Source: a virus. From it: a DNA stretch of 64,000 bases. This document shows positions 17,354 to 64,000 of this stretch, one piece after another. A program made the position numbers and the translations under genes. Location: positions 1-64,000 of IMG/VR virus record IMGVR_UViG_2716884766_000001; one strand, given 5' to 3'. The notes beneath the pieces were generated by a model. It did no database searches. It was not told the DNA's origin and saw only the letters and a program-made list of their open reading frames with translations. Numbering within the stretch: the stretch's first letter is position 1; every line of letters begins with the position of its first letter.

Positions 17354-17361
17354 TATTTATA
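17354..17361 (-). promoter_or_regulatory. T4 late promoter TATAAATA
   Basis: Plus strand TATTTATA at 17354-17361; contains the TAA stop of the 2377-aa gene; about 20 nt upstream of the ATG at 17333. Confidence 0.8.
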
Positions 17362-26920: not shown

Positions 26921-27217
26921 TTATTTATTGCTTTTTTCCACTAGAACTTGAAGCATAGACTTGAGTTCTGTAATCTCATCTTTGAGGTCTAGAACTTCAT
27001 CACGCTTCTTGCTAGCTTCAGCACGGGCTTTGATATATGCCTCGTACGCAGCACGATCCGTATTAACAATAGCATTGCTATCTGGATCTCTTCCTAGGTG
27101 TTTATGATCTTCTACTTTTATTAAACCTTTTTCGTCTCTTGGGTCTAGTATACCCTGCTCTCTACGAGCAGTGATTTCTTTTTCTCGTTCTCTGGCTATT
27201 GCCTCAAAGTCTTCCAT
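26921..27217 (-). CDS. Conserved hypothetical protein downstream of the VrlC-like gene
   Basis: 98 aa; KVE.H..L.RD..SNAIVNTD..AY..Y motif and a C-terminal coiled coil. Confidence 0.75.
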   Translation of the reverse strand: MEDFEAIAREREKEITARREQGILDPRDEKGLIKVEDHKHLGRDPDSNAIVNTDRAAYEAYIKARAEASKKRDEVLDLKDEITELKSMLQVLVEKSNK

Positions 27218-35449: not shown

Positions 35450-35457
35450 TATTTATA
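35450..35457 (-). promoter_or_regulatory. T4 late promoter TATAAATA upstream of gp8
   Basis: Plus strand TATTTATA at 35450-35457, overlapping the gp7 stop codon. Confidence 0.8.
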
Positions 35458-47400: not shown

Positions 47401-50275
47401 TAGGTGATACAAACAGTGGATCTCCGACTTCATCCGCACTAGCAGCTAAGTTCTGCGTCAATATAGGTAATTCGACTTGGAAGGTAGCTCCAGAACCAGG
47501 ATACACGATATCAACAGTTGTTATACCAGAAGTGTAACCTACACCTCCATTAGTGACTGTAATACCCGTAACTTGCTGTGTACCAGAATCTATACTCGCA
47601 AAAGCAACCGCACCGACTCCATCACCACTAATAACAACGTCAGGAGCACCATAGTAGTTACTACCACCAAATGTCAAGATAATAGATACAATCTTACCAT
47701 TTACGATAGATGGGTAAGCAACAGCACCAGATCCAGATACTAGAGTGATATTTGGTCTTTGATTGTAGTTTGTACCATTGTTTGTGATTGTTATGCCTTC
47801 AGCTTCTAATCCACCACGAACAACCGCTGTACCAGTCGCACCTTGTCCACCACCACCAGATATTACCACTGTAGGTATAGATTGGTATCCTGAGCCAGGT
47901 GCGGACACGGATATAGCAGTTACGACTCCTGCGGTGATTGTAGCAGTCGCAGATGCTTCAACTGTAGGACTTCCACCCACAATACCAACTGTAGGAGCTT
48001 CCGTATAACCAGATCCTCCGTTTTCTACGTTTACCGCAAATAATGAACCAGATACGCTTACAGTAGCTTCAGCAGACAATCCTTCGTATTCCCAGAGGCA
48101 ACCACCGTCTTGTACTGGATCTGGAGTTGTATGTGTAGGTTCTTGTCCTAATTCTGCGGTTTTACCGCTTCCTAAGTTCTTATATCTGTATCCTAGACTA
48201 TTTCTGATTCTTTGGTTAAGAAAGAAGGATGTACCCTTTCTATGGATTGGTTCAAACTCTACAATCGGTGGATTAGTGATATCATACCCAGATCCCGCAT
48301 TTAGAACCGTAATTGACTTTACACCACCAAATAGTTTCGTTTCTACTGATTTATAGGAGAACATTGGTACTCCATTCACAGCAAACCCAACTTGACCCAC
48401 AGGAGTCGGAGTTTTGATAGATTTAGTAGTTGTTTCGAGAGGAATGCGTTTTAGATATCTCTGGTTGCCAGGATCTAGGTCTCCGCTGCCAAAAGGTCCT
48501 ATTTCATGACCAGGTACACCTGGTGACGCAATTATCGCATATTCTGAAGATCTGTAGACATTCTGTACATCAGATGGTGTATCCTCTAATCCTAAACGTA
48601 TAGATGTGTCAACTGACGTAGTTTTCGCAAATTCACGTGTAACTAGGAATGGTACGTCCACACCACGGATAGGAGTGCTAGGAATTAAGATACTAAACTC
48701 AAAATTGTTACTTACACCAAGTACAGTGAATGATGAGTTATATACGTCCTCTGGAGCGTTCAAAATGACAACTCTGTCTTCTCTTCTTAATCCGTGCTCT
48801 TGTTCAGTCGTAATATTCGCTACAACACTACCATCTGCCTTCGGAACGTCTAAAACTAGCAATGTTCCGTTTAGGAGCTTCTTAACGTTGTATACGAAGC
48901 TTTCCCAGATAGGATCTAACGCATCAAAGCCTGGTTCTGATGGTGTGGTGACTTTTGAGTCTTGTAAGTAATATTTACCGCCACTTACGATGTCTATTCC
49001 TCTTGTACCGCCAAATACCTTTAAACTGATCTTAGATTCGTCTCTATTGCTGTATCCAAAGATTTCATAGGAAGAAGTTACCTCAGATCCTGCAATATGG
49101 GGTGCATTGACTGTATCTTGTCTCGCACGGGTACATCCTAGGAACTGGGTGACTGTTTTGTCTGTATAGTTGATAATCTCGTCATCTATACGAATAGAGC
49201 CGTTCTGTTCTGGCCATCCAATAGTAGAGTCGACTGTTACGACGTTTTCCGTAAGGTTAGAACTTAGATCTTCAGAAAGGAGCGTTTTATACGGAGTTGT
49301 GAAACTTCCATCGCCATTTTCCGTATCTACATCTAATTCATAGATCTTTCCGTCTTCGGTAAACACCTCAACTACGGATTTTACGTATATACGTGCGGAA
49401 TTGACAAGAGGGTCGTTTGGATCGTTCTCTTGGAATAATACTTCACCTGTAAGTTCCACAGGGTTTCCGCTTATCGCTGTAGCACGAATAATCTCCCTTA
49501 CAGTGTAAAATGCGTCACTAGGTTTGAATATTCTTTCTTTAGGGTACTCAATAACTGCTTCTACACCAAAGAGCACTCTCATCAAGTACTTAAATGACCT
49601 TGATGTACCTTTAGCAGCGTAAAAGTCCTTAAGACGCTTAGTAACTGTTGATTGTTGGATTTGGGGGTCAAACTTAGAAGGGAATGACTCAGCAAACTGA
49701 TCTCTGAACCTCTGTAGTAAGAATAGAGGTAAAAGGTTGTTTAGGTTGACTACTGTAGCACCAAAAGCATGTGTAGCTGCTACAGATGTTGAAAATGTGT
49801 ACTCTGATAGTAAACCTATCTTGGTAGTGGCATGAAATCCTCTAACACACTCTTGAAACTGTGTTTGGGACTTACTCTTGTAGTATATGATCTCTTCGTC
49901 TATCATTAAGAGACCTTCCTTTGGAAAATCTCTAGTATTTCCTACGTCAATGACTGTTGAGTCTAAAGTCACCCCAGAGGACGCTGTAGTCGACTCTACG
50001 AGGTCATTTAGCTTGTCTATGTTATAATATTCATCTATGTTCTGTATTATGTCAACAGGGTTACCCTTTAGTTCAAGTGATTTAAAGTAATACTTGACAA
50101 ATTGTATAAAGTCAGGATAATCCTCTTGGATAAACTGAGGCATTTGCTCCTCAAGTCTATCCGAGACTTTAGATTTAGATTCTGGCGAAACCGAAGCGTC
50201 AATCGGGTCAACTGTGACCTCAGTTTGAGGTGTGACCCACGACGCAACTCTCCACGACGACTGCTCAGCTGGCAT
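35453..50275 (-). CDS. gp7: Baseplate wedge initiator gp7, greatly expanded (4940 aa)
   Basis: Lies between gp6 and gp8; QMPQFIQEDYPDFIQFVKYYF, KDFYAAKGTSRSFKYLMRVLFG and DSDRYQEFSYVV...HPAGF core motifs; also a split YHYH-like domain and nested repeats. Confidence 0.88.
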   Translation of the reverse strand: MPAEQSSWRVASWVTPQTEVTVDPIDASVSPESKSKVSDRLEEQMPQFIQEDYPDFIQFVKYYFKSLELKGNPVDIIQNIDEYYNIDKLNDLVESTTASSGVTLDSTVIDVGNTRDFPKEGLLMIDEEIIYYKSKSQTQFQECVRGFHATTKIGLLSEYTFSTSVAATHAFGATVVNLNNLLPLFLLQRFRDQFAESFPSKFDPQIQQSTVTKRLKDFYAAKGTSRSFKYLMRVLFGVEAVIEYPKERIFKPSDAFYTVREIIRATAISGNPVELTGEVLFQENDPNDPLVNSARIYVKSVVEVFTEDGKIYELDVDTENGDGSFTTPYKTLLSEDLSSNLTENVVTVDSTIGWPEQNGSIRIDDEIINYTDKTVTQFLGCTRARQDTVNAPHIAGSEVTSSYEIFGYSNRDESKISLKVFGGTRGIDIVSGGKYYLQDSKVTTPSEPGFDALDPIWESFVYNVKKLLNGTLLVLDVPKADGSVVANITTEQEHGLRREDRVVILNAPEDVYNSSFTVLGVSNNFEFSILIPSTPIRGVDVPFLVTREFAKTTSVDTSIRLGLEDTPSDVQNVYRSSEYAIIASPGVPGHEIGPFGSGDLDPGNQRYLKRIPLETTTKSIKTPTPVGQVGFAVNGVPMFSYKSVETKLFGGVKSITVLNAGSGYDITNPPIVEFEPIHRKGTSFFLNQRIRNSLGYRYKNLGSGKTAELGQEPTHTTPDPVQDGGCLWEYEGLSAEATVSVSGSLFAVNVENGGSGYTEAPTVGIVGGSPTVEASATATITAGVVTAISVSAPGSGYQSIPTVVISGGGGQGATGTAVVRGGLEAEGITITNNGTNYNQRPNITLVSGSGAVAYPSIVNGKIVSIILTFGGSNYYGAPDVVISGDGVGAVAFASIDSGTQQVTGITVTNGGVGYTSGITTVDIVYPGSGATFQVELPILTQNLAASADEVGDPLFVSPKIADSNNGVSIKGANFGIYGGEYGYLYNPKKLRFLLGDNVSDTTYAELNPTRHSPILGWSFDGHPIYGPYGYADRENKNPYNQIKQMISSYRIRTERDALVGNDLAQIDKMGTYIEDYEYVEGLGDLDQYNGRFCVTPEYPAGIYAYFTALDGTTGNPKFPYFVGPNYYSQAEDVNWKGNGLQRNFTEDAVRYKRPYVATDTALVRRKNKGNPVEYILAMEDSTTPIVLENDESFIGFVTVGIGYFDFFPSIQGGSVDSLFVSATNRYFSSGLDQYLIEGPGFNYKVNDRLIFDETGTGGSGVSARVSKISGSGTSAIVSSVNSTTDVITGTITTATDHFLKIGDSVDIAIGDNQYTREIDVKVVNDKYHFKYFDLTNFIISSKGRILQANISITGGTGLTDGNYSNVPLIGGTGQNASADIIVSGNTVTSVSIQNTGKNYSNGDVLTANISNIGNTGQNFSVDIGNVKKTGGIVQDEWTMLAGSGGTPGTYTNVPLANSSASSGEGAEFTIVVGNSGEVTSVTLTKEGSGYYNNEQLDPIVTSDIGGVNGFYITPSKINQEFTARGTAAHQVKIGDEVIITGTNPVDYDGTFTVTGISTGRRFQFKKAVGIITDTAITTACVVYVKEPKLDLINGHLYKFNTTDSSNTGKRLEFTFDKENTNVFTYKNIVGSENDPVTGEQISITISLDDVPGTLFYFDINGGVSGSYLSVVNDPFLGANTVTAIPTTTTINFILAREPENNYTAANLISYSTNSIFPSGGIASINIGDPGRNYSTFPKFTGVERSGGGAQAFATISGKLEDVSVLEAGIGYDGANPPAVVCSMPDFVDLTLDEIFGDFNPGDVIASKLVLDGDTARGKVISWDPNTSTLRVQPLRNNLPGAATRGFIMFTTAIAATNKIYAGSNQAKITAVGGEQANVAAIVPSSGPEIGTISNIAINGDGGSNYRTAPEIFIDDPYYGGVATLSVNSQNSSANFTPGTYTVSQESVAPTGGSGVSIQVIISASNQDVTTANVLAGGANYSLGDLITIRGEDITGGSSADDFVLRVDSLDFVRKAVTGTTIDASIDQVIVSNSGSGFLSAPEVQISGGTGIDAVLRAEIIDETVSSIVIENAGTRFQNPPIITVKQGTGNGASILLKSSDLGKIISLGGDNITYNYSHDRTLKPSVNTNYNLQLTRTQIVDFFTVTNGGGSFVTKPTIELIGGGGSGAVMDAIIDNEVIQAITIANAGRGYSSTPAVQARITHSFVPLQSNSTLNFPYDTKIPLGTKVQLLEIDGTLPAPLQANVTYYAIAPSLANGLASNQLKMATTLANALAGSSITITGQPSIGSGGTATFNLTTTDLGDQITVSMTPASFAIGEKVYQGSSVASFSAQGIVKAWDSKGRVLSVEVEVGEFALNQPVFGLQSNAFGEIHDFDRSVANFTVSPIATATAEFKRTTGILDLNDQRLYDSDRYQEFSYVVNSPINVRDWKNQFKNSAHPAGFRVLGTQVVSQSAFKRYQRRSYYNGANPDPNDWWEQRFGDENKSFNGTTFFVPKPSASNTGKLARIENFVLGKPDYTATVPTNIQVVGKQLLDVRKILSAVVDKMDPINERTITFNGTDSNVVDISNEQITFANHGLISNQRVSYLVQGDRFQDARNLILGNLDYIIATTITWLEQSYPNLTDGTKPDYNADTCARDLRLIVIAWCNDLRYGGNKFSVDAAESYVVGGAIDYIVGETVETIAAIQYARDLAIQAIQNLLPFTDVTITQDPGGCADVQSAITVLAQIVWDAIDNPGNIPTQNVGNYPYVREGITLGGLPVGTYYVTRVDDDNFKLSTTTGGSVHTFVSALPITGSNGFTGTPSAATYNPVTGDLTFTVSSNTMTTSHTITLGLGAFTFTCAGDNHATTHAYPRSTDPAYNTPLAITNVVGNDVTINVGVADTTVDITALSTDSQHQLTVEFDDVNRNFQLRTRGTATVPTNKNQLMVTINGIVQNPTSYTLSGSTITFLEPPMRNSSVIIMYFKRSDISGNFQLDQFGDVITALNTTDGVYQGTGYTAGTYNNVPFTNKLSDGSGATGNIVVTNVLDSATFVTDNKYADARTLIDNNAGVIADIAVGLMNKYGTPVDNKVADAANLILMNKDFIAREAVDRMHADIPYTIANKRHFDAYNLIMANKDFIVWEAYYLFKTIDYPGYTHAQGYTEQDCRDDLMDILEAIAFNLLFGANNKVYDASFYYTSAYSSGSVIQGEEQQTIAAVNQMKGLMDKVILNETVSIAGDHGYEQYFEDVTYIYDGCASAKSAISTFVDIVVTAINTDLMIHVNKTEPTLFVEPTGNDEDCVDDVRDVLEAVAINAKFGGNSEVYDAAKYYVDGAHVAGEEIHTIYAFREADKIARQVIANEAVTVVGDHGEIQKYDGGITRSDNQCASARATIHTLMNIVEVAVDTNTMSAFTRTAPTGFNAPGLGDGQCKSDTRDVLNAVATNVAYGGNHTLYDTLNMYFVGSHVAGEEAETLYVFEEARQMVLKAIQQESFETYSHLNLTDKSQYKDPTITAYQSTDATQYNVTNAVYTATSGQVEITIGSHSLEVGTRVKLDDMSLTFKCAQDGSVTHHKYPRSTDWAYRKSLPILSKTGTTITLYVGESPTVNYQITDATYDPATGDMDMEVYNTQFNVSAATYNANTGSMTVNIGSHSMEIGEEIMFRPESLGFKCSMDGNNATKMYPRFGKDPFYDKALKIIAKTNNTITVNVGPSPLVNHTVTGSNYDPVTGLVELTIGNHILKVGDAITITDNSLVYQCLMDFYQTDHSYPRPSDPASGAALTITAVTDTSITIQSLSSTPSTNTSTHRWKPGYVANDAVQSGGGHTHTFQTAVTGAVVIPHGLRSERTLSIDSADYNPTTGIMTVTCENHGLTPTDEIIIDDNSLIFTCQEDSHASDHAYPRGSDPISELWQPITDVTRNTFKVQVLNTAPSTNTTDHIFKAAVAYNLHVRGTTLKISDGGITFTCDAAVGTHTFVSGTTNGITAGNGASGTFTAATGTTYDPLTGLMEVEIGTHSLTTSNTVTFADNSVTFTCAADNHATNHAYPRASDPSSGVAEAITAVSATTITVDVGIAGSSSSTHSYPRTDIVNHTVTNAVYTPADGDMVVTVVGHSMRKGDYVKFDDDSLTFTCAEDGNGSNHTYPRSTDPVSGKWLRIRNVTTDTFKVRVLDFIPSTNTTTHAFVSATSNGLKQKKDQAYDQPLSIVRSSIDRITVNVGIAATNASTHVYSSSLTNALTIGGNYTHTFLSATPNAVKQGYGVREACTAVQATVDTLMDLAYTALNQGNFSGITRTVGNHGDGYETAPTVQISGGSPTTAGSYVPVLAERGYVKSIGIIVGGVGYTNVPTVKITSKTGFNAAATATVSGGALTGITVDEGGFGYNDVTIEIIANPADTITTTATAAAIVGRHLERIVVQETGVGYASTPTLSLTGGSASTAAGTLSAPIARTTGAVTGVSLVSGGDGYKNTDVLGVDAADVGGTVGNSFQVEVETVTFNGTTTGFAATVGGSGYTLPANDRFLLFLNSHIQELGTAYSYSGTPSTINFTEAPKGNMDFYCFYVGQLQDMDSIAPFMNGTKKTFILKKNDQPFSLESDSTQVIPANNLIMFLNGVYQEPEVSYTLDGSILEFSEAPRAGSEVLIYIYTGSDLDIVIEDTYSALDPGDLLQVQSEGDIRRLATIASSSSLDTYEYTGLKPNVAIFQSVVVNGVVVQVNIIDSGSNYEVAPFLIFSGGGGSGAFAETIIEQGSGRVIGIKNLKGGSNYNTPPSVTPYHPIALERTQRDRAVSNGTFLYTTQLTGAIGQQTATIPVLDAYYNNGVGFPTNGELLIPFWNASTSTWGCERILYGSVDYAAETFTVTTNGRGFKNTGTALGFGYANGPESGNFNSSGTNCVITMGSNHNLQTGMERFIRFTSAIGNWPTGSLNGTYKITRASDTAFSISLPVSLTATGTMEILPTIRVYTV
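37481..41173 (-). repeat. Three nested helical repeats enclosing a seven-copy beta-repeat tree in gp7
   Basis: Three consecutive N-halves (YADARTLI, VADAANLI, HFDAYNLI) then three cores (CRDD, CVDD, CKSD); seven F/Y-x-C...YPR beta units at about 37574-39787. Confidence 0.8.
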
Positions 50276-53941: not shown

Positions 53942-54145
53942 TCAGTACGAAGTATCAGTAATCGCTAGATTATCGTCTTCGTCTAGGGTAATTTCTACGT
54001 AATTTAACTCCGTATTATAGGTCCACATGAGTTTTTCCCAGATTCCGTGGAAATCTTCCTCATCTACACCTCTCATTATACATCTATCTTCCCAATAGAG
54101 GTGATAAATCTTAGAGTTTTTCGATAGAGTTGAGTCTTTTGTCAT
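53942..54145 (-). CDS. Hypothetical protein
   Basis: 67-aa ORF, acidic C-terminus, in the same operon orientation. Confidence 0.65.
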   Translation of the reverse strand: MTKDSTLSKNSKIYHLYWEDRCIMRGVDEEDFHGIWEKLMWTYNTELNYVEITLDEDDNLAITDTSY

Positions 54146-54487: not shown

Positions 54488-54515
54488 ATTATAACACATA
54501 TTATCAGCAAGTCAA
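54488..54515 (-). promoter_or_regulatory. sigma70-like promoter TTGACT-N16-TATAAT (extended TG)
   Basis: Plus strand ATTATA at 54488-54493 and AGTCAA at 54510-54515. Confidence 0.7.
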
Positions 54516-55305: not shown

Positions 55306-55510
55306 TTTCTTCTTTAGTATAAGGAGTGAAGACTATTAACTCTTCGCCATCCTTAACTTCCTTCATCTCTGGGTGTATATTATAAGATGTTTTAGGTTTT
55401 GTGTCAAGTGACATGAGTACAGATGACATGCTTCGCCACATAAACGCAAAAGATGCTCCTAGCACTGCTGCGAAGCATATAAAATATACGAATATGGTTA
55501 TGTCATTCAT
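55298..55510 (-). CDS. DUF2973-like small membrane protein
   Basis: TM helix followed by IHPEM...GEELIVF, resembling the cyanobacterial DUF2973 HPE motif. Confidence 0.65.
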   Translation of the reverse strand: MNDITIFVYFICFAAVLGASFAFMWRSMSSVLMSLDTKPKTSYNIHPEMKEVKDGEELIVFTPYTKEEND

Positions 55511-55815: not shown

Positions 55816-55898
55816 TTCTTAAATGCTCCGAGTTTAGTTAATACGTATAATCCGAGTACAACCCAGAATATAAGTTCAAGTGCGTAGTTAGTCGTCAT
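55812..55898 (-). CDS. 28-aa single-pass membrane peptide (not in ORF track)
   Basis: MTTNYALELIFWVVLGLYVLTKLGAFKK; ATGA overlap with the downstream gene. Confidence 0.6.
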   Translation of the reverse strand: MTTNYALELIFWVVLGLYVLTKLGAFKK

Positions 55899-56127
55899 GA
55901 TCATCCCAAGGGTCGGCAAGTCCTTTGTTAGCAAAGAAAGCTTTGTATACACCAAACCCTGCCAAGAGTGTGGTAATCACTGCTACTGATATCCCAAACG
56001 TGATGTTGGGGTTAGCATTATAGTGAGGTATGAGTGCGTTACACTTCGTCCAAGTACCTGGCAGTGTATACACAGGGGGGCACGATAACAGCATATCTCT
56101 TATCGCATACATTTCAGATCCAATCAT
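55888..56127 (-). CDS. psbN: PsbN-like protein with an N-terminal extension
   Basis: C-terminal half (TFGISVAVITTLLAGFGVYKAFF...LADPWDDHDD) matches the PsbN pattern: TM helix, G[YF].[LV]Y.AF, L.DP[FW]..H.D. Confidence 0.75.
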   Translation of the reverse strand: MIGSEMYAIRDMLLSCPPVYTLPGTWTKCNALIPHYNANPNITFGISVAVITTLLAGFGVYKAFFANKGLADPWDDHDD

Positions 56128-57140: not shown

Positions 57141-57322
57141 TAGTTAACCTCCATCCATTTGATGTCTGCCTTAGTGCCTACCTTGAAAATACAGACGCGA
57201 TCCATGGTATCGGTTGCCATGTCAAGTGCTGTGTCCTCAGCGGATGCGAAGTCGTTTTTAAATTCAGCACCTATCAAAACTTGGTTTCCCCAGTGTGAAG
57301 GTTGGATTGCCCATGTTGTCAT
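57140..57322 (-). CDS. Hypothetical early protein (start re-placed at 57322)
   Basis: MTTWAIQPSHWG...; AGGAG Shine-Dalgarno and TACAAT -10 (57353-57358) upstream. Confidence 0.7.
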   Translation of the reverse strand: MTTWAIQPSHWGNQVLIGAEFKNDFASAEDTALDMATDTMDRVCIFKVGTKADIKWMEVN

Positions 57323-57388
57323 GTTGGATTGCTCCTGTGTTTGTATAGTACTATTGTAGTCTATTTTGTTGGAAAAAATAGCATTGAT

Positions 57389-57412
57389 TGTGACACAAAT
57401 AATATTGTCACA
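57389..57412. promoter_or_regulatory. Palindromic early-promoter box, copy 1
   Basis: TGTGACA-caaataatat-TGTCACA; centre 42.5 bp from the minus-strand TACAAT at 57353-57358. Confidence 0.75.
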
Positions 57413-57431
57413 CCAGACCGCGACGGTCTGG
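57413..57431. terminator. GC hairpin (possible terminator or processing site)
   Basis: CCAGACCG-CGA-CGGTCTGG just downstream of the gene ending at 57448; no clear U-tract. Confidence 0.4.
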
Positions 57432-57447
57432 GCGGCTCGTTTGACGC

Positions 57448-57603
57448 TCAAGTAACAGACCTCCTAAACTCTAGACATATCTCTTTGAAATAGTCCATGT
57501 CCTCTGCTGACACATAGTCTGCTCCGTCCTCTCCAAAATAAGAGAATGTTTCATTCACTCTCTTAATAAAGGTAAGCAATGCGATTTCGTTTGGTGTATA
57601 CAT
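57448..57603 (-). CDS. Hypothetical early protein
   Basis: MYTPNEIALLTFIKRV...; start re-placed just after the upstream stop. Confidence 0.65.
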   Translation of the reverse strand: MYTPNEIALLTFIKRVNETFSYFGEDGADYVSAEDMDYFKEICLEFRRSVT

Positions 57604-57605
57604 GA

Positions 57606-57773
57606 TTAGTGCCTGTCTGAGATGTACCATACCCCATAGTTGTTTATTCTTTGGGGTTCAAAGTTTCTCTTTGACATTTCAAAGAGTGCTGCCTTAACAA
57701 CTGGATTGTTAATTGCTGTTTCGTTAGCAAGTACCTTTCCGTCGTAGATAGGTCTTAATTGAGAGTCAAACAT
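57606..57773 (-). CDS. Hypothetical early protein (start re-placed at 57773)
   Basis: MFDSQLRPIYDGKVLANETAINNPVV...GVWYISDRH; TATAAT at 57798-57803 upstream. Confidence 0.7.
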   Translation of the reverse strand: MFDSQLRPIYDGKVLANETAINNPVVKAALFEMSKRNFEPQRINNYGVWYISDRH

Positions 57774-57797
57774 AGTTTTCTTGTTTGTTACTCTTCT

Positions 57798-57906
57798 ATT
57801 ATAGTTCGGATTACACATAATAATGACAATAAAGGACACTAATATAAGTGGCACACTGCCAGCTTAAAATTCCAGAGCTACATGCTATAATGAAGGTAGA
57901 GCTCAT
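57798..57906. promoter_or_regulatory. Bidirectional promoter module with palindromic box, copy 2
   Basis: ATTATA(57798)-GGACACTaatataAGTGGCAC(57834-57854)-TGCTATAAT(-10 at 57886)-GGTAGAGCTCAT. Confidence 0.8.
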
Positions 57907-58142
57907 TTCCCTACCCCCTTTTTAAAATCACATTTCATGTAGTCTTTGATCTCTTCCACCACTTCATCATAGCTATCGTCCCAATAGTTGCGAGCTTCCT
58001 CGATGAACTCATGCTCACCCAGTTTATCGAAGTAATTAAACAAGTCGTTGGATACATACTCCTCTAGGTCTTTGGTGGACATATTGTCCACCATTCTCTC
58101 TGTTAAGAACTCTTTGAGTTCTAGTAGTAATTCTCTATCCAT
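57903..58142 (-). CDS. Hypothetical acidic early protein
   Basis: 79 aa; ERMVDNMSTKDLEEYV motif. Confidence 0.75.
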   Translation of the reverse strand: MDRELLLELKEFLTERMVDNMSTKDLEEYVSNDLFNYFDKLGEHEFIEEARNYWDDSYDEVVEEIKDYMKCDFKKGVGK

Positions 58143-58655
58143 TTATAGATACCCTGCTACTTCACATCCTGGTTCATCATAGAACCACGATACAGACAAA
58201 TCGTCAAACTGTTCACGGATTGCGTAACAAATCTCTTCGGGTGGCGACCATGCTGTATCGAATGTTACTTGAAATCCATGTGGCATGTCAGAGTCCTCTA
58301 TATCCACACAGTAGCAATCCCACTTCGTTCCCCAGTTATGGACTCTCCAGTTGTACCATCTATCATCATTTACATCAGTGCTAGGGAAATATAAACCCCT
58401 GCCAAAACCTTTGTCTTTATATACTGGCAACTCACCGACCTCACCTCTAGGGTTAGAGAATGAATATTCTTTGACATCACTCTCAGCAAGTGGAACTTTA
58501 GACCAGTCTGGTTCGGGTATGAATGATCCAAACACTGTGTCAACTGGTTCTTTAAGTTCATCAGCAAGTGCCTTGTTAAAGATTGCGTGTAGTTTGAGAA
58601 TTGCTGTTGTATCCTCTGAGTAGAATTCTACTCTGTTGTGACAATGATTAGGCAT
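58143..58655 (-). CDS. DUF1281 / YubB-type ferredoxin-like domain protein
   Basis: MPNHCHN...WYNWRVHNWGTKWD...FDTAWSPP...FYDEPG signature; TAAGGAG Shine-Dalgarno; start re-placed at 58655. Confidence 0.8.
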   Translation of the reverse strand: MPNHCHNRVEFYSEDTTAILKLHAIFNKALADELKEPVDTVFGSFIPEPDWSKVPLAESDVKEYSFSNPRGEVGELPVYKDKGFGRGLYFPSTDVNDDRWYNWRVHNWGTKWDCYCVDIEDSDMPHGFQVTFDTAWSPPEEICYAIREQFDDLSVSWFYDEPGCEVAGYL

Positions 58656-58678
58656 AAACTCCTTAGTTGTATAATACA

Positions 58679-58787
58679 ATTATACTGCCACAGGTGACAG
58701 TATGGTGAAAAAATGGACACTAATATAAGTGGCACATAGCCACGTGAAAAGAAGCATGGTCCTTGCTATAATGGGGGTAGAGCTCAT
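58679..58787. promoter_or_regulatory. Bidirectional promoter module with palindromic box, copy 3 (direct repeat of copy 2)
   Basis: ATTATA(58679)-GGACACTaatataAGTGGCAC(58715-58735)-TGCTATAAT(-10 at 58767)-GGTAGAGCTCAT; spacing identical to copy 2. Confidence 0.8.
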
Positions 58788-58951
58788 AATTCCTCTATGT
58801 CCTCTATGACCCATTCACCTGCATATTCGTCCTCAACATCGAATGCATTTACATTCTTATGCAGGAGCTCTTCGGCTTCCTGCATTGTTTCTGCTTCGAC
58901 TAGCACGGTGAAGTAATTCACCTCGCTGCACTGGATTCTAAATTGATTCAT
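58784..58951 (-). CDS. 55-aa protein, DpnD/PcfM-like (not in ORF track)
   Basis: MNQFRIQCSEVNYFTVLVEAETMQEAEELLHKNVNAFDVEDEYAGEWVIEDIEEL; V.VEA....EA motif; ATGA overlap. Confidence 0.65.
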   Translation of the reverse strand: MNQFRIQCSEVNYFTVLVEAETMQEAEELLHKNVNAFDVEDEYAGEWVIEDIEEL

Positions 58952-59139
58952 TCGGGTTTCATTGTAAAGTGTAAATCATTGACTAGGAACCCGCTGCTAG
59001 CGGTTAATTGTTCGCAGAGGTCTTGAAGGTCTGTTGCTTCCCAGATCCCCCAATGATCCTCTGTTATTGCTTCGCGGTTAGTCTTTGAGATCCACTCCTC
59101 ATCGAATGCGAAATTGACTTGAGTTACGAAATATTTCAT
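58948..59139 (-). CDS. Hypothetical early protein (start re-placed at 59139)
   Basis: MKYFVTQVNFAFD...GIWEA...DL...LT...GFLV; GGAGG Shine-Dalgarno and ATGA overlap. Confidence 0.7.
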   Translation of the reverse strand: MKYFVTQVNFAFDEEWISKTNREAITEDHWGIWEATDLQDLCEQLTASSGFLVNDLHFTMKPE

Positions 59140-59438
59140 TTGAATGAAACCTCCCTCATGTCGCATGAGTACATTACAGAGTCTTGACGAAATGCTCTTT
59201 TGTATGCTTCACCCACTTCAAATAATGCGTCCTCATACTGTCTACCAGTAACAGAGAAACAAACTATTGCTTCCATTGTTCCTTTGTAGATCCCCATACC
59301 GTGAGTAATTGTGGCATACTCAAGACGGGTGAGCACTTCATCTTTGATGAACTGTTCTAACATCTGATTGGTGACAGTTCCCTCGTCTCCGATGTTTCTG
59401 CCGACTGTTAGTGTGGTTGTCTCCAAGGTTAACCTCAT
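59136..59438 (-). CDS. DUF3574-like protein (PII/ferredoxin-like fold)
   Basis: GRNI...G.VT...EQFI..EV..R...T....G.YKG..E...YKRAFRQDSV pattern. Confidence 0.7.
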   Translation of the reverse strand: MRLTLETTTLTVGRNIGDEGTVTNQMLEQFIKDEVLTRLEYATITHGMGIYKGTMEAIVCFSVTGRQYEDALFEVGEAYKRAFRQDSVMYSCDMREVSFK

Positions 59439-59452
59439 TGATTGATATCTCT

Positions 59453-59549
59453 ATAATAGTTCCTAGCCCTGACTAATACAAGTGATAGTGTGCACTAATA
59501 AAAGTGGCACACTCAATGCACTATACGGTGCAGGATTTGCTATTATAAT
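59453..59549. promoter_or_regulatory. Divergent promoter pair around palindromic box, copy 4
   Basis: GTGTGCACTaataaaAGTGGCAC (59488-59510) with TATTAT on both strands, each 41.5 bp from the centre; lies between divergent genes 59438(-) and 59553(+). Confidence 0.75.
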
Positions 59550-59552
59550 AAT

Positions 59553-59756
59553 ATGAAAAACTTCCAAGAATTCATCGACTACTGCCTAGACTTCTACGGG
59601 TGGAATGGTCTATACGACCAAGGTCGAACACGTGAGCAAATTGCTTACGCTACTCTATACTACCTTGACTCATGTAATGATCAAATTACTTGGGGATATG
59701 GTGACTCACTCGACAGAGAAAGAGTCCGTGACATTATGAACGAGTTGTACGACTAA
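59553..59756 (+). CDS. Hypothetical early protein
   Basis: 67 aa; FIDYCLDFYG..GLY...GDSLDRERVRDIM; apparently leaderless. Confidence 0.75.
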   Translation: MKNFQEFIDYCLDFYGWNGLYDQGRTREQIAYATLYYLDSCNDQITWGYGDSLDRERVRDIMNELYD

Positions 59757-59989
59757 TGGCATATTGTGACGTTTGCGGTAACTTTGATGATTCTCATTTT
59801 GAGGATCTCAAAGAGACCTATCAAGACATACCCAAAGATGCACATCAGCCTGATTTGTATTATTATTGGGATGCACCCATAGAAGAGGACTATTCCTGGC
59901 GAGATGCACACCCACACGTAGACTGCATGTGTGAAATCTGCTTTGATATAGCTAATCATGATAAACAAATAATATGGGCTGATCATTAA
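59756..59989 (+). CDS. Small Cys-rich (putative Zn-binding) protein
   Basis: CDVC near the N-terminus and CMCEIC near the C-terminus; TAATG coupling. Confidence 0.7.
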   Translation: MAYCDVCGNFDDSHFEDLKETYQDIPKDAHQPDLYYYWDAPIEEDYSWRDAHPHVDCMCEICFDIANHDKQIIWADH

Positions 59990-60051
59990 TGAAACTAAAA
60001 AAGAAACCAAAGAGACCAGGACCAATGCCTGTAGTCATCACCCCAGACAGT

Positions 60052-60110
60052 GTGACACTTACACAAACTGTCCACACATGTCCCAAATGCGGTTTTACCG
60101 CTGCTATAAT
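60052..60110 (+). promoter_or_regulatory. Palindromic box copy 5 plus extended -10
   Basis: GTGACACTtacacaaACTGTCCAC (60052-60075) and TGCTATAAT (-10 at 60105). Confidence 0.75.
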
Positions 60111-60136
60111 AGAAAAGTAAACAACCGAGGTAAACC

Positions 60137-60367
60137 TTGAAATTAAACTCAATCGCTAAAAACCAAACTGAAGTCACCCTCTCAAATGGTGATCAGGTAT
60201 TTTTCAGTTACAGGACCCCAGTCGCGTGTTACATTGCTAAAAAGGGACGCTATGCAAGAACTGATGCATGGTACTCATCAACCACTACAAGACATATTAA
60301 CAAGTGGTTGGGCAATCTTGAGTACGACGTAATCCCCCAATCATACCTAGACGAGATCACCCTCTGA
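60137..60367 (+). CDS. Hypothetical phage early protein (TTG start)
   Basis: FFSYRTPVA...YSSTTTRHINKWL motif; GAGG Shine-Dalgarno upstream. Confidence 0.75.
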   Translation: MKLNSIAKNQTEVTLSNGDQVFFSYRTPVACYIAKKGRYARTDAWYSSTTTRHINKWLGNLEYDVIPQSYLDEITL

Positions 60368-60394
60368 TCTCCTAGGTATCAAATGATACAACAA

Positions 60395-60423
60395 AACCCC
60401 GACAGGTCATCCTGTGCGGGGTT
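60395..60423. terminator. Intrinsic terminator between convergent genes
   Basis: AACCCCG-ACAGG-tcat-CCTGT-g-CGGGGTT hairpin; minus strand followed by TTTTGTTGT. Confidence 0.7.
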
Positions 60424-60444
60424 ATCCCAGTGCAACTTGACAAA

Positions 60445-60621
60445 CTACTTGCAGGGCACCTGGTAACAGAGTCCTTCGAGTACATAATAATCTGCCAGCT
60501 CGTAGAGCTCTGGATACTGCTCGATTAGATCCGTATCCAGTAGAAATTGGACGATTTCCACTGTGTCACACGGTGATAGCGTCCCGCTGTGATATTCTGC
60601 TATAATATCCTTATAGTTCAT
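60445..60621 (-). CDS. Hypothetical protein (likely start MNYKD at 60621)
   Basis: ORF-track protein; ATAAATA late-like motif at 60642-60648 upstream. Confidence 0.65.
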   Translation of the reverse strand: MNYKDIIAEYHSGTLSPCDTVEIVQFLLDTDLIEQYPELYELADYYVLEGLCYQVPCK

Positions 60622-60625
60622 AGAA

Positions 60626-60787
60626 TTAATAGTCTTCATGGTATTTATTCTTACTTTGAGACTTAATCCTCTTACTATTAGATATCATATCACCATAGCC
60701 ACTTCTCTCTAGATCCTCAATATCATTCATTTCTCTCATTTTCTGTGAGAATGACTCTTTTTTGTATCTTTTGCTACTTTTTCCCAT
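60626..60787 (-). CDS. 53-aa basic protein (not in ORF track)
   Basis: MGKSSKRYKKESFSQKMREMNDIEDLERSGYGDMISNSKRIKSQSKNKYHEDY; fills the gap between two genes. Confidence 0.6.
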   Translation of the reverse strand: MGKSSKRYKKESFSQKMREMNDIEDLERSGYGDMISNSKRIKSQSKNKYHEDY

Positions 60788-60789
60788 TC

Positions 60790-61089
60790 CTATACTATTT
60801 GAGATAAAGTACCATTTCTTACCAGTTCATTAAATTTCTTCCCTAGTGAGAGATGTTGCTCCTTTACAAACTTTTCTATCTCTTTCACAAATTCTGAGAG
60901 GTTCTCAGTATAGTTATAGAAATATTCAGTATCTCTACCTTGGAAGATTATTCCCACTTTCCCATCTTTTATTTGAATCTGGTTAATAGCTGTACTTATC
61001 TCAGAAATGTCAAAAACGACATCTTTTACCACTTTCCGCGACTTTCTGCGTTTTGTAGCGGTTTTTACCTTTTTCGCAGTTTCTGCCAT
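60790..61089 (-). CDS. KTSC-like domain protein with a basic N-terminal tail
   Basis: STAINQIQI...VGIIFQG...EYFY...SLGKKFNELVR resembles KTSC (S..I......L.V.F..G..Y.Y...S.G.[YF]FN..IR); AAGGA Shine-Dalgarno. Confidence 0.55.
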   Translation of the reverse strand: MAETAKKVKTATKRRKSRKVVKDVVFDISEISTAINQIQIKDGKVGIIFQGRDTEYFYNYTENLSEFVKEIEKFVKEQHLSLGKKFNELVRNGTLSQIV

Positions 61090-61114
61090 GTTCCTTTGTT
61101 TTTGTTATATTCTA

Positions 61115-61208
61115 ATTATATCAGAGATTCTCGGAGAAAATACCAAAAGTGGACAGTTTTATTTCTGGCACACTCTCGCTTGACTTTCGAGTGACCGCAG
61201 GCTAAGAC
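61115..61208. promoter_or_regulatory. Palindromic box copy 6 with flanking promoters
   Basis: GTGGACAGTtttattTCTGGCAC (61149-61171); minus-strand TATAAT at 61115-61120 (40.5 bp); plus-strand TTGACT-N17-TAAGAC at 61180-61208 (42.5 bp). Confidence 0.7.
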
Positions 61209-61295
61209 AGCAATTCCTCCGCACATTCTGGAGGTATTCTGTACATATTCTAAGGTCACTCTATTCTCACTCTAGTTCTCTCAGATACATTTATT

Positions 61296-61502
61296 TTAAC
61301 ATTTAATTAAACTACGATTTATAGTCCCATGCTCTGAATAAGTAGAAGCATCGTCCAACAAAACAGTTAAGTTCTTGAAAGGACCATAGAATCTGTTAGA
61401 GTTATCATAACTCCAAAAGTGCCCCTTCCGCGTGTTCTTCGTAACTATGGTCACTGATCCCTTTGAGGTTGAGATCACTGTCTTCGATGCTTGATTCCAC
61501 AT
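61296..61502 (-). CDS. Possible hypothetical protein (MWNQ start)
   Basis: 68 aa; YGPFK motif; overlaps the 3' end of the upstream ORF by about 100 nt. Confidence 0.45.
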   Translation of the reverse strand: MWNQASKTVISTSKGSVTIVTKNTRKGHFWSYDNSNRFYGPFKNLTVLLDDASTYSEHGTINRSLIKC

Positions 61503-61728
61503 AGGATTTAATAAGTTTAACTGATGACCAGAGATGACGATAGATACAAACATTGACTTGTCTGTCTCTACTACTCTCTGTTCCCTCTATTGTTAAAGTG
61601 AAGTATGATGTTGGTGTATGCTTATGTAGATGATTAGGTGTTGCTATACAAATACAATTTACATAGCCTCTATACCCATCTACCTCTACTAAATCCCCTT
61701 GCTTGAACTGTAGTGGCATAGCATCCAT
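61405..61728 (-). CDS. Hypothetical protein (SH3-like N-terminus)
   Basis: FKQGDLVEVDGYRGYVNCIC...VCIY..W; CTAAATA at 61743-61749 upstream. Confidence 0.65.
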   Translation of the reverse strand: MDAMPLQFKQGDLVEVDGYRGYVNCICIATPNHLHKHTPTSYFTLTIEGTESSRDRQVNVCIYRHLWSSVKLIKSYVESSIEDSDLNLKGISDHSYEEHAEGALLEL

Positions 61729-61758
61729 ATCAATACTGACTCTATTTAGATTGGGTGC

Positions 61759-61817
61759 GAGAAAACAAAACGGTCTGGATACACACAGTTAAAGTATCCA
61801 AGTGGTTTGTTTTCCCT
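61759..61817 (-). ncRNA. Structured 5' leader or small RNA hairpin
   Basis: GGGAAAACAAAC-cacu-UGGAUAC-N11-GUAUCCA-gacc-GUUUUGUUUUCUC starting at the predicted TSS of a consensus promoter. Confidence 0.5.
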
Positions 61818-61823
61818 GAGTAT

Positions 61824-61881
61824 ATTATAGTCTGTTAGTGTGTATGTGTCAACCCATGTGTGATGGTTTATTATCTGTCCA
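61824..61881 (-). promoter_or_regulatory. Consensus sigma70 promoter TTGACA-N17-TATAAT plus degenerate box copy 7
   Basis: Plus strand ATTATA at 61824-61829 and TGTCAA at 61847-61852; TGTGATGGTttattaTCTGTCCA at 61859-61881 centred 41.5 bp from the -10. Confidence 0.8.
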
Positions 61882-62418
61882 TGATAATGGTATATTGTCC
61901 ATGTTTACTGTTAAATTAAATGATAATACTGTTCTACGTTGTTCACTTGTGTGTGGATGTGTATAGTGGTGTAAGAAACTAGGAAATAGAATAAGGTCAC
62001 CTTCCTCTACCTCTGGTTCATATGTTAACTGCTCTCCTGTAATGAAGTGGTCGTATGGTGCGATGAAGTTAGTAGGTCTATGATACTTGGAGTTGTACTC
62101 AATGTATAATACTGCTGAGTATCCACCATGTCCATGATTATGTGTTGGATGATACATGTATGGGAGTGCTCGTTCATACCATGCTCTTACAATACGTGGA
62201 TCACAATTATAGTCATGTGCGAACCAACTTAGTTCATCATGTAGTATATCTGATATGTCATTGATATAATTATTGTCACCACGATAGTCAGAGAGTACTT
62301 GTTCGTCTCCCTGTACCATGTCCAGTGTGTCTATGTGTCTCAATAGCCTTTGTTTCTTCTGTTCCCACCAACTACACTTGTAGTGTGTCAGTGGTATATG
62401 AAACATGTTTATATCCAT
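61849..62418 (-). CDS. 2OG-Fe(II) oxygenase (TIGR02466-like)
   Basis: HPTHNH...SAVLYI...EGDLILFPSFLHH...RTVLSFN; start may be 62406. Confidence 0.85.
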   Translation of the reverse strand: MDINMFHIPLTHYKCSWWEQKKQRLLRHIDTLDMVQGDEQVLSDYRGDNNYINDISDILHDELSWFAHDYNCDPRIVRAWYERALPYMYHPTHNHGHGGYSAVLYIEYNSKYHRPTNFIAPYDHFITGEQLTYEPEVEEGDLILFPSFLHHYTHPHTSEQRRTVLSFNLTVNMDNIPLSWTDNKPSHMG

Positions 62419-63644
62419 GCTGTTGCGGGTTTACCATGCTTGAAGATAGTATCAACTGTGCGTTGTACTCTCTTTGCTGTTGCCTTACCATAGTTATTAT
62501 ATACAGGTATACTTATGAACCCTGTTGGTTTGTTGTAGTTATGGTATGCTCTAGGTCTCAATGTACCATTGCTGATATTGTTTCTATCCTGTGTGTCAAG
62601 TCGAATTACACGTCCGATAGTCTGTGCCATTTCAACTGTCGATAGGTTACGTAACAGTACAACATTAGTCAGACCAGATACATTGATACCTTCTGACAAT
62701 ATACTGTAATGAAACAGTACGAACTTCTGACCAGTAGCACTGAATGTGTCCAACTGTGTGAAGAACTGACTACGTGATACCTTCTTACCATTGATGATAG
62801 CACCATGCTTAGATGTAATAGTCATGACATTATAGTCTGCTTGACGTAGATCACGGAATAGATCTGTGAATGCCATCATAGCATTGATAATACGTGCTGA
62901 CGGTGCTGATACTAATACTCTCTCAGCATCATCAGCATTAATGACTCTTAATACTGTCTCAGCATCAATGTCTGCTACCTCTTCACGTGTCCTTACAGTG
63001 TCCACTGTGTGTACATTTACTGTCGGAGGAAGTATAGCACCACAATCAAGTAATTCATCTGCTGATACTGTGATTAGATTATTACCATATACATCCTCAT
63101 TGTTCATGCCACGTTCATGTTTAGCACTCATTTTAGGTGTAGCAGTGAAGAAGTACTTACGTCTGCTCTGCTGTGACACAATAGATGTAGCCTCAAAAAA
63201 ATTGCGTTGCGTAGTGTTGTGTGCTTCGTCACAATAGAAAGTGTCTACGAAGAACTGGTTATTTGCTATCTTGTGAAGACTATGATATGTAGTGAATAGT
63301 ATTACATGAGCACCGAATGTATGTGCTGAAGATACGAACCTCATGATGTCATCCTGTGAGGTCACAGAATAGAATGGAGAGTCACCACTGTGTACACTAC
63401 CAATCTTGTAGTTAGATACACTGTTAAGTATCTCATTGAACTCATTAGCAAGTTGTAGTGCTAACATAATACGTGGAGCAGCAACTACAGTAAGTGTAGG
63501 ATAGTCACTCTGAACTAACTGAGTACGTAAGTCCTCAATCATACAAATAGTCTTACCACCACCTGTAGGAATATACACTGTGCCATGCTCATTGTTGTAT
63601 AGAGCGTCGATAGTGCGTTCTTGATGTGGTCTGAGTGATAACAT
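62409..63644 (-). CDS. SF2 (ResIII/DEAD-like) helicase
   Basis: LRPHQ, PTGGGKT (Walker A), DEAH, TATP, LSEGI, QTIGRVIR; start re-placed at 63644, downstream of the promoter at 63666. Confidence 0.88.
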   Translation of the reverse strand: MLSLRPHQERTIDALYNNEHGTVYIPTGGGKTICMIEDLRTQLVQSDYPTLTVVAAPRIMLALQLANEFNEILNSVSNYKIGSVHSGDSPFYSVTSQDDIMRFVSSAHTFGAHVILFTTYHSLHKIANNQFFVDTFYCDEAHNTTQRNFFEATSIVSQQSRRKYFFTATPKMSAKHERGMNNEDVYGNNLITVSADELLDCGAILPPTVNVHTVDTVRTREEVADIDAETVLRVINADDAERVLVSAPSARIINAMMAFTDLFRDLRQADYNVMTITSKHGAIINGKKVSRSQFFTQLDTFSATGQKFVLFHYSILSEGINVSGLTNVVLLRNLSTVEMAQTIGRVIRLDTQDRNNISNGTLRPRAYHNYNKPTGFISIPVYNNYGKATAKRVQRTVDTIFKHGKPATAWI

Positions 63645-63665
63645 AGTTGCTTCGTTGTTATCACT

Positions 63666-63723
63666 ATTATAATGTAATTTGATAGTCAATTCATGTAATA
63701 GTGTACAGTTATTCTATTGTCAC
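63666..63723 (-). promoter_or_regulatory. Palindromic box copy 8 plus -10 element for the helicase
   Basis: GTGTACAGTtattctATTGTCAC (63701-63723), centre 41.5 bp from the minus-strand TATAAT at 63666-63671. Confidence 0.75.
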
Positions 63724-64000
63724 AACCCCTTCGTAGATTGCCCTGTTAGCAATATATCTCTCCCATGCTCTAGCATCTATCTCCCATGGTTCATCCCAAT
63801 ACTTAGTGAAGGGAGATACTATTTGCTTATGCCATGTGCTACTACCGTCTCTCTTCTGTCCCCACTCTCCCTTGACACGTTGTTTCACGTGTACCATTTC
63901 ATGTGCGAGTGTGACTAGGTAGTCCCATTTACTGAGACCATTATGTATTTGTATCTCAAAGAATCGTGGACGTGTAGCACTGTCCAGACATAGCATCTGT
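63709..64000 (-). CDS. Zincin-like metallopeptidase (HExxH), probably 5'-truncated by the window edge
   Basis: TLAHEMVHVKQR...PWEIDA; the frame stays open to position 64000. Confidence 0.75.
   Translation of the reverse strand, partial: QMLCLDSATRPRFFEIQIHNGLSKWDYLVTLAHEMVHVKQRVKGEWGQKRDGSSTWHKQIVSPFTKYWDEPWEIDARAWERYIANRAIYEGVVTIE

Follow-up and report, generated by a model that had tools for sequence, protein, structure and literature searches.

A repeated two-fold box at a fixed distance from -10 elements: candidate activator-dependent promoter cassettes in an apparent T4-like cyanomyovirus genome

How does a T4-like cyanophage start its transcriptional programme without Alt, Mod, MotA, and AsiA? 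This mechanistic question concerns some of the most abundant viruses in the ocean. Cyanomyoviruses lack alt, modA, modB, motA, and asiA, and the control of their early and middle genes was unclear at the time of the review that summarized this (PMC2984593). The question arises at the right-hand end of the stretch analyzed here, positions 1 to 64,000 of the IMG/VR virus record IMGVR_UViG_2716884766_000001. The window, i.e., this whole stretch of 64,000 nucleotides, comprises bases 1–64000 of a phage contig of 189,106 bp with a GC content of 40% (contig C3), and between 57 and 64 kb a two-fold repeated element, hereafter called the box, recurs upstream of TATAAT-like hexamers.

We consider that the boxes probably mark activator-dependent promoter cassettes of a T4-like cyanomyovirus, one for each small early-type transcription unit, and we assign this sequence-based reading a probability of roughly 0.7. 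The TATAAT-like -10 element of each cassette would serve the host RNA polymerase carrying the primary sigma factor, and a sequence-specific protein on the box would most likely replace the recognition of a -35 element by recruiting or stabilizing the polymerase. Because the element is two-fold, it could serve promoters on both of its sides.

Geometry of the boxes and the promoters of the region

Read on the gene strand, the box has the general form TGTG(A/C)CA-N10/11-TG(T/G)C(C)AC, and its near edge is 27–30 nt from a TATAAT-like hexamer. The distal half is TGTG(A/C)CA, or GGACA in two copies; the spacer, which is AT-rich in this phage, has 10 nt, or 11 nt in one copy; and the proximal half occurs as TGTCCAC, TGGCAC(A), or TGTCAC(A). 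The -10 hexamers that follow on the strand of the downstream gene are TACAAT, TATAAT, or TATTAT, and they are separated from the start codon by 15–30 nt in most units and by ~95 nt in the unit at 61.8 kb. The box as a whole spans about -64 to -41, its near half-site ending at about -41. An earlier sequence-only reading of this DNA had placed the box centers 40.5–42.5 nt from the hexamer, which is correct for the near edge of the hexamer and corresponds to about -52.5 to -54.5 when the hexamer is set at -12 to -7.

Ten boxes with a gap of 27–30 nt to a TAnnnT hexamer were found on the contig, nine of them without a -35 element. The eight that the sequence-only reading had located in the window are all present, and two further ones lie outside it. 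Between 57 and 64 kb, the boxes delimit nine short transcription units, each with one to four small genes; hairpins close some of these units (57413-57431 and about 60372-60420). The cassettes are as follows.

57353..57412, minus strand: cassette 1; box 57389-57412, a perfect TGTGACA-N10-TGTCACA; gap 30 nt; -10 TACAAT at 57358-57353; targets, the gene with its ATG at 57322 and the small genes downstream; the terminator-like hairpin at 57413-57431 abuts the box.
57798..57856, minus strand: cassette 2; box 57832-57856, GTGTGCCA-N10-TGTCCTT; gap 28 nt; -10 TATAAT at 57803-57798; targets, genes 57773-57606 and 57630-57448.
58679..58737, minus strand: cassette 3; box 58713-58737, its 21-nt core equal to that of box 2; gap 28 nt; -10 TATAAT at 58684-58679; targets, 58655-58143 (DUF1281_C-like) and 58142-57903 (DUF7326).
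59453..59512, minus strand: cassette 4, leftward arm; box 59488-59512, between divergent units; gap 29 nt; -10 TATTAT at 59458-59453; targets, 59438-59136 (DUF3574), 59166-58948, and 58951-58784.
59488..59550, plus strand: cassette 4, rightward arm of the same box; gap 30 nt; TATTAT at 59542-59547 overlapping TATAAT at 59545-59550.
60052..60110, plus strand: cassette 5; box 60052-60075, GTGACA-N11-TGTCCAC, inside a 43-codon open reading frame (ORF) at 59989-60120; gap 29 nt; -10 TATAAT at 60105-60110; target, gene 60137-60367 with a TTG start.
61115..61173, minus strand: cassette 6; box 61149-61173; gap 28 nt; -10 TATAAT at 61120-61115; targets, 61089-60790, 60787-60626, and 60639-60445.
61824..61880, minus strand: cassette 7; degenerate box 61858-61880, GGACA-N10-CATCAC; -35 TTGACA at 61852-61847; -10 TATAAT at 61829-61824; target, 61728-61405.
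63666..63725, minus strand: cassette 8; box 63701-63725; gap 29 nt; -10 TATAAT at 63671-63666; targets, the gene of a UvsW-type helicase (ATG 63644, end 62409) and a 2OG-Fe(II) oxygenase gene at 62418-61849.
57886..57891, plus strand: TGnTATAAT on the far side of box 2, 30 nt from the box, facing the 3' end of the upstream minus-strand gene.
58767..58772, plus strand: TGnTATAAT on the far side of box 3, 30 nt from the box, a duplicate of the unit at 57886.
66695-66718, outside the window: perfect GTGGACA-N10-TGTCCAC box preceding a DUF7717 gene and methylase operon.
151667-151689, outside the window: box preceding a CobS-like AAA_5 ATPase gene, with a distal half that differs from the GTGGACA-N10-TGTCCAC pattern.

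Promoters of two classes occur in the region, boxed ones that lack a -35 element and host-like ones that have it. A TTGACA-like element 16–18 nt upstream of the -10 was absent from seven of the eight boxed promoters in the window, as the sequence-only reading had claimed for most of them, and the same seven promoters also lack the TGn extension of the -10. The sole boxed promoter with a -35 element is that of the degenerate box, where a perfect TTGACA-17-TATAAT is found at 61852-61824 (minus strand). Two promoters of the region are unboxed, namely, a canonical TTGACT-16-TGnTATAAT at 54515-54488 (minus strand), from which the box had already been said to be absent, and a perfect TTGACA-17-TATAAT at 55407-55379 (minus strand).

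To evaluate how far the boxes exceed chance, a position-weight matrix was built from the boxes themselves, and as this procedure is circular, a stricter pattern derived from relatives was also used. The boxes had matrix scores of 20–30 bits, and the next best site on the 189-kb contig had a score of 14.3. In the structural half of the window (1-52000), no site exceeded 8.4 bits, which agrees with the earlier remark that no box was seen at late promoters; in the 1.41 Mb of host contigs no site exceeded 18.7 bits, i.e., none reached 20 bits. The strict pattern matched 6 boxes on the 189-kb contig against 0.37 expected, and 5 of these with a -10 at 26–31 nt against 0.08 expected (60 first-order Markov simulations in each case). 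A shuffle test of a looser pattern with two mismatches gave 7 matches against 3.7 expected, which is not significant. The signal thus lies in the combination of half-sites, spacing, and -10, and not in a loose consensus. Two weaker cassette candidates from a composite scan, at 54053 and 64418, were too degenerate to be counted.

The box is a two-fold repeated element, and to this extent its earlier description as palindromic holds; it is not a simple palindrome, because the two arms are non-complementary in seven of nine copies and 6-mer and 7-mer half-site variants are mixed. Given that the arms do not pair, selection therefore acts on a protein-binding word and not on a hairpin.

At three boxes, -10 elements are present at the proper distance on both sides. 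In cassette 4, a transcript from the TATTAT at 59542-59547 would begin with the A of the start codon at 59553 (ATG), which opens the 67-codon first gene of the plus-strand unit, and may be a leaderless mRNA. At boxes 2 and 3, a near-duplicated plus-strand unit, GCTATAATG..GGTAGAGCTCAT, with an extended -10, occupies 57862-57910 and 58744-58800, running antisense into the upstream gene at its 3' end. The two occurrences of this unit are both in the present phage, and it had no other match in the fetched sequences. These far-side TGnTATAAT units could be divergent or antisense promoters, or the trace of a cassette duplication, and the duplication seen in cassettes 2 and 3 suggests mobility of the units as well. 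The ORFs that overlie boxes 2 and 3 (57811-57906 and 58680-58814) have only the box and -10 stretches in common and were read as non-coding. An Rfam scan of 53–64 kb detected no known RNA family.

Conservation of the cassette among cyanophages

Contig C3 belongs to a 1.6 Mb assembly of 32 contigs, all others of which have a GC content of 27–37%. The only DNA matches of the region are patchy ones to myoviruses of Prochlorococcus and Synechococcus. Giant structural ORFs occur in the window together with genes for a gp6-like baseplate protein, a PAAR protein, and the UvsW-type helicase and with a psbN-like ORF, and the remaining contigs of the assembly encode Yfr2, a picocyanobacterial small RNA, and have a PMM1637-like gene. 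Based on the myovirus matches, the T4-like genes, and the presence of Yfr2 and the PMM1637-like gene on the other contigs, C3 is read as a near-complete genome of a T4-like cyanomyovirus inside a cell of the high-light Prochlorococcus type.

The motif scan of relatives proposed in the sequence-only reading revealed the same cassette in Syn9, P-TIM40, and MED4-213, and it also recurs in dozens of viral contigs of marine origin. In Syn9, five cassettes are located at 43.1–48.6 kb, in the run of small genes before the helicase, and P-TIM40 has at least ten at 45–55 kb; in both genomes, the half-sites are the same as here and the gap to the -10 is 28–31 nt. In MED4-213, two cassettes lie downstream of the gene that is orthologous to the DUF7326 gene, where cassette 2 is located in the present phage. 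No such box was found in P-SSP7, a T7-like podovirus whose host belongs to the same genus.

An exact-pattern scan of IMG/VR with GTGGACA-N10-TGTCCAC returned at least 120 stretches. Among the matches listed, most of those in contigs with 35–42% GC have a TATAAT or TATATT 28–30 nt away on one side of the box, and none of those in contigs with >50% GC has a -10 nearby. The latter matches look like chance, for which the 14 specified bases are few enough. Also among the matches listed, 12 boxes precede homologues of cobS that are 70–79% identical to the cobS of this phage, and the 12 upstream regions have nothing in common apart from the box and the -10. As these loci were chosen by the box, the independent evidence consists of the linkage to cobS together with this phage's own site.

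On the contig of this phage, every box stands upstream of small genes without known function, of the helicase gene, or of the gene resembling cobS. The small genes of the region show poor conservation between phages, in contrast to the conserved box. The sequence-only reading had proposed an early regulon licensed by an activator. What stands of this proposal is a repeated element of fixed geometry that belongs to a small-gene region of early type, and the missing -35 elements fit an activator that binds the box; activation and early timing are what we infer from them.

Some features of these genomes were recorded in passing. In the P-TIM40 cassettes at 50.3–55.1 kb, a third conserved word, (G)CACTACCG, occurs 7–9 nt after the box, and faint versions of it follow two boxes of the present phage, 59488 (on the plus side) and 66695. 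Four giant minus-strand ORFs of 4471, 2377, 2229, and 4940 codons (3365-16780, 17357-24490, 27217-33906, and 35453-50275, respectively) occupy most of the structural half of the window, and P-TIM40 has a comparable 22-kb virion-protein gene beside its baseplate genes. A 79-codon minus-strand ORF at 55888-56127 has a PsbN (photosystem II) domain (E = 1.5e-8), and would be a photosynthesis-related auxiliary gene within the small-gene region.

Candidate readers of the box

Early genes must fire on naked injected DNA, and for this reason the reader of the box would most simply be a protein already present in the cell. The best named candidate would be the GntR-type host regulator PlmA, the homologue of PMM1637, which we put forward tentatively, as a candidate and not as a finding. 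PMM1637 binds a palindrome, CGRE1, in the promoters of yfr2 and yfr4 and raises the activity of both promoters in an Escherichia coli reporter (Lambrecht et al., 2018; PMC6191309). In that study, CGRE1 is described as an element of 21 or 22 nt with GTTG/GTTA flanks and a near edge at -55 to -57 (PMC6191309).

We reconstructed CGRE1 by aligning the upstream regions of yfr2 genes, located with the Rfam model RF01701, from the host (one copy), 40 genomes of the genus, and 60 genomes of the family. The result, AAC-TGKCAC-N1-2-GTGMCA-GTT(A/G), agrees with the published length, flanks, and near edge. Reading CGRE1 as GTTA-N14-TAAC was also tried, and scans with this form gave noise only. The most conserved part of the element is its promoter-proximal half, (A)TGTGACA(G/A)TTA, which is the sole part kept in many promoters of the high-light type.

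This half corresponds to the distal half of the phage box. The consensus of the host half-site is.ATGTGACAGTTAA (50 promoters) and that of the phage distal half is ..TGTGACAcTtat (29 boxes from four phages); the similarity between the two profiles was matched by only 1 of 20,000 column shuffles, and the columns that are not forced by the site-picking pattern (TG before the core, and T at +2 and +3) agree as well. The position is also shared: GTGMCA of CGRE1 ends 45–49 nt before the -10 in host promoters, and the phage distal half, with the consensus TGTGACAcTt, ends 44–48 nt before it. Thus, the half-site word TGTG(A/C)CAnTT, its orientation, and its distance to the -10 are the same in both systems. 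Furthermore, the promoter in the CGRE1 system has no good -35 element and is activated by its regulator (PMC6191309). The host assembly contains exactly one GntR-family gene, of 329 codons, with an N-terminal winged-helix domain and a C-terminal part of no known family, which is 78% identical to the single copy in the genome taken as MED4; no GntR-family gene was found on the phage contig.

Several observations weigh against PlmA as the reader. First, the yfr5 promoter, which keeps the proximal half only, is neither shifted nor activated by PMM1637 (PMC6191309), and one shared half-site is therefore not enough. Second, the partner halves are arranged differently: in CGRE1 the partner is 1–2 nt upstream and inverted, whereas in the phage box it is 10 nt downstream and everted. 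The CGRE1 arrangement TGKCAC-N1-2-GTGMCA was not found on the phage contig; conversely, the phage arrangement was not found in the intergenic DNA of 60 genomes of the host genus, and the host contigs have no site that scores as the phage boxes do (none at ≥ 20 bits). Third, P-SSP7 has no box despite infecting the same host genus. Finally, the shared half-site core amounts to only about 10–11 bits of information. The systems also differ in that TGTCCAC, a 7-mer not seen in CGRE1, often forms the proximal half of the phage box, and in that this box as a whole is centered ~14 nt closer to the promoter.

On these grounds, it is possible, although doubtful, that PlmA reads the boxes and activates early gene expression in T4-like cyanophages, the host operator having been rearranged into a high-affinity bidirectional version. 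A literature search found no publication in which PlmA or CGRE1 is connected with cyanophages. PlmA is a partner of the PipX-PII pair of nitrogen and energy signaling, and if the phage does use PlmA, the onset of infection would be wired to the nitrogen, carbon, and light status of the host.

Three host sequences were noted during this comparison. On host contig C2 (~256070-256150), the only detected Yfr2 gene has a perfect TGTCAC-AT-GTGACA CGRE1, after which comes another inverted repeat, GTTGAA-N13-TTCAAC, with no counterpart seen in the other yfr2 promoters. On host contig C7 (~74260-74400), just past the 3' end of a tRNA, half-sites of the CGRE1 type, TGTCAC-TTA-GTGCCA, are followed by TGTGACAC-GAG-GTGTCAGTTAA; this cluster could be another target of the PlmA type or an island border. 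The third, GTGACAATAGAAACTGTTGGCAC (GTGACA-N11-TGGCAC), present at one locus in 17 of the 60 host-genus genomes, is inside an HlyD-like membrane-fusion gene and was regarded as a coding coincidence, not as a host regulon; host genomes scanned for the motif would falsely yield it as a box of the phage type.

A reader encoded by the phage itself, either delivered with the virion or made from the first transcripts, appears unlikely to us; in the second case, the boxed promoters would be delayed-early. It would suit the phage-specific nature of the everted N10 arrangement, which is missing from the intergenic DNA of the 60 host genomes and for which the 1.41 Mb of host contigs contain no site scoring as high as the boxes, and the confinement of the cassette, among the genomes examined, to the T4-like cyanophage lineage, with its absence from the podovirus P-SSP7. 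T4-type virions also inject proteins. However, no DNA-binding domain was found in the ~40 small proteins of 50–68 kb and no GntR domain on the contig, and a reader encoded in this region would need to be conserved like the box, yet the small genes there are poorly conserved. A phage reader also leaves unexplained why one host half-site is copied at the host's distance from the -10.

It is improbable that the box is instead the operator of a phage or host repressor that shuts constitutive promoters at the switch from early to middle expression. Two-fold sites common to one temporal class are typical of operators, and GntR-family proteins are mostly repressors, but a box at about -64 to -41 is clear of the -10 and the start and is poorly placed for occlusion, and promoters with neither a -35 nor a TGn are unlikely to be strong unaided. 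The pairing of the perfect -35 with the most degenerate box is also what would be expected if box and -35 were alternatives.

Direct reading of the element by RNA polymerase, through alpha C-terminal domains on an AT-rich spacer in the manner of an UP element or through an alternative host sigma factor, is quite improbable. The AT-rich 10-nt spacer of this phage does lie at about -57 to -48, in the UP-element zone; however, AT-richness of the spacer does not extend to Syn9, where the GC-containing half-sites are nevertheless conserved, the conserved information is in the half-sites and not in the spacer, and the -10 hexamers are of the primary-sigma type. Very improbable is a structural or recombinational origin of the repeats, as RNA or DNA hairpins (terminators or processing sites) or as ends of mobile cassettes resembling the PeSL units of T4-type phages: boxes do stand at the borders of small gene units, some abut terminator-like hairpins, and boxes 2 and 3 are near-identical duplicates including their flanks, which hints at cassette duplication, but the arms of seven of nine boxes cannot pair, the phages have conserved the half-site word and its spacing from the -10 rather than base pairing, and a secondary role in recombination, although possible, would not explain the geometry.

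Two known sites were compared and rejected. The NrdR box (ACAC-N8-GTGT) is resembled by three boxes only and fails for the others. TGGCAC recalls the -24 element of sigma-54 promoters, but no TTGC is present at N5, and to our knowledge cyanobacteria lack sigma-54.

Among these alternatives, we prefer activator-dependent promoter cassettes. The analysis adds a clean and fully mapped cassette set from what appears to be an infected wild cell, and displays the boxed promoters without a -35 side by side with the canonical class. It also sharpens one concrete candidate for the reader, in that one half of the PlmA operator appears to be copied at the host's own distance from the -10 and paired differently. 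The identity of the factor, for which this half-site suggests PlmA as a candidate, would tell whether the onset of infection is coupled to host physiology.

Comparison with known promoter systems

The promoter principle has precedents. The middle promoters of T4 that depend on MotA/AsiA have a good -10 and no -35, and the MotA box is a single 9-bp element centered at -30 and read by a phage protein. The cassette described here follows the same principle, i.e., an upstream activator box would replace the recognition of a -35; it differs in that the box is bipartite, spans -64 to -41, and belongs to an early-type class. What promoters activated by NtcA or CRP have in common with the cassette is a -10 without a -35, preceded by a two-fold site of the dimer type. 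NtcA sites have the form GTA-N8-TAC and are centered near -41.5, and CRP sites have the form TGTGA-N6-TCACA, whereas the box fits neither in sequence or spacing: its inner triplets are ACA-N10-TG(G/T), and in the perfect palindrome TGTGA and TCACA are 14 nt apart, which bears out the sequence-only reading on this point.

The PeSL units of T4-type coliphages, on which Arbiol and colleagues reported in 2010, are said to combine a canonical early promoter with a stem-loop. Like the cassettes, they are repeated units with a promoter, placed next to individual small early genes where T4-type genomes are plastic. The units of the present phage differ from them in lacking a -35 and in carrying a two-fold box whose arms do not pair.

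The closest likeness is to an element of cyanophages themselves. According to Doron and colleagues in 2016, a new regulatory element reportedly controls the early genes of Syn9 and host-like promoters drive its middle genes; the same is said to hold for P-TIM40, and such elements are said to be widespread in T4-like cyanophages. The earlier suggestion that similar motifs had already been noted in cyanophages is right as far as can be told. The canonical sigma-70-type promoters at 54488-54515, 55379-55407, and 61824-61852 may belong to the host-like class that the Syn9 study reportedly assigned to middle genes. Because the cassette is present in Syn9 and P-TIM40 and stands beside canonical promoters, we file it, as far as can be told, under the early element of these two phages; it is placed there by phage and setting, and no description of the Syn9 early motif was found in the accessible literature. 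Shared features are the T4-like cyanophage background and the runs of small genes adjoining a UvsW-type helicase, and the differences are that the present phage is an uncultured relative from the single-genome assembly of a host, and that its spacers are more AT-rich than those of Syn9. As far as can be told, the cassette adds one more example to a promoter type that T4-like cyanophages have already been reported to carry, and is not new in kind.

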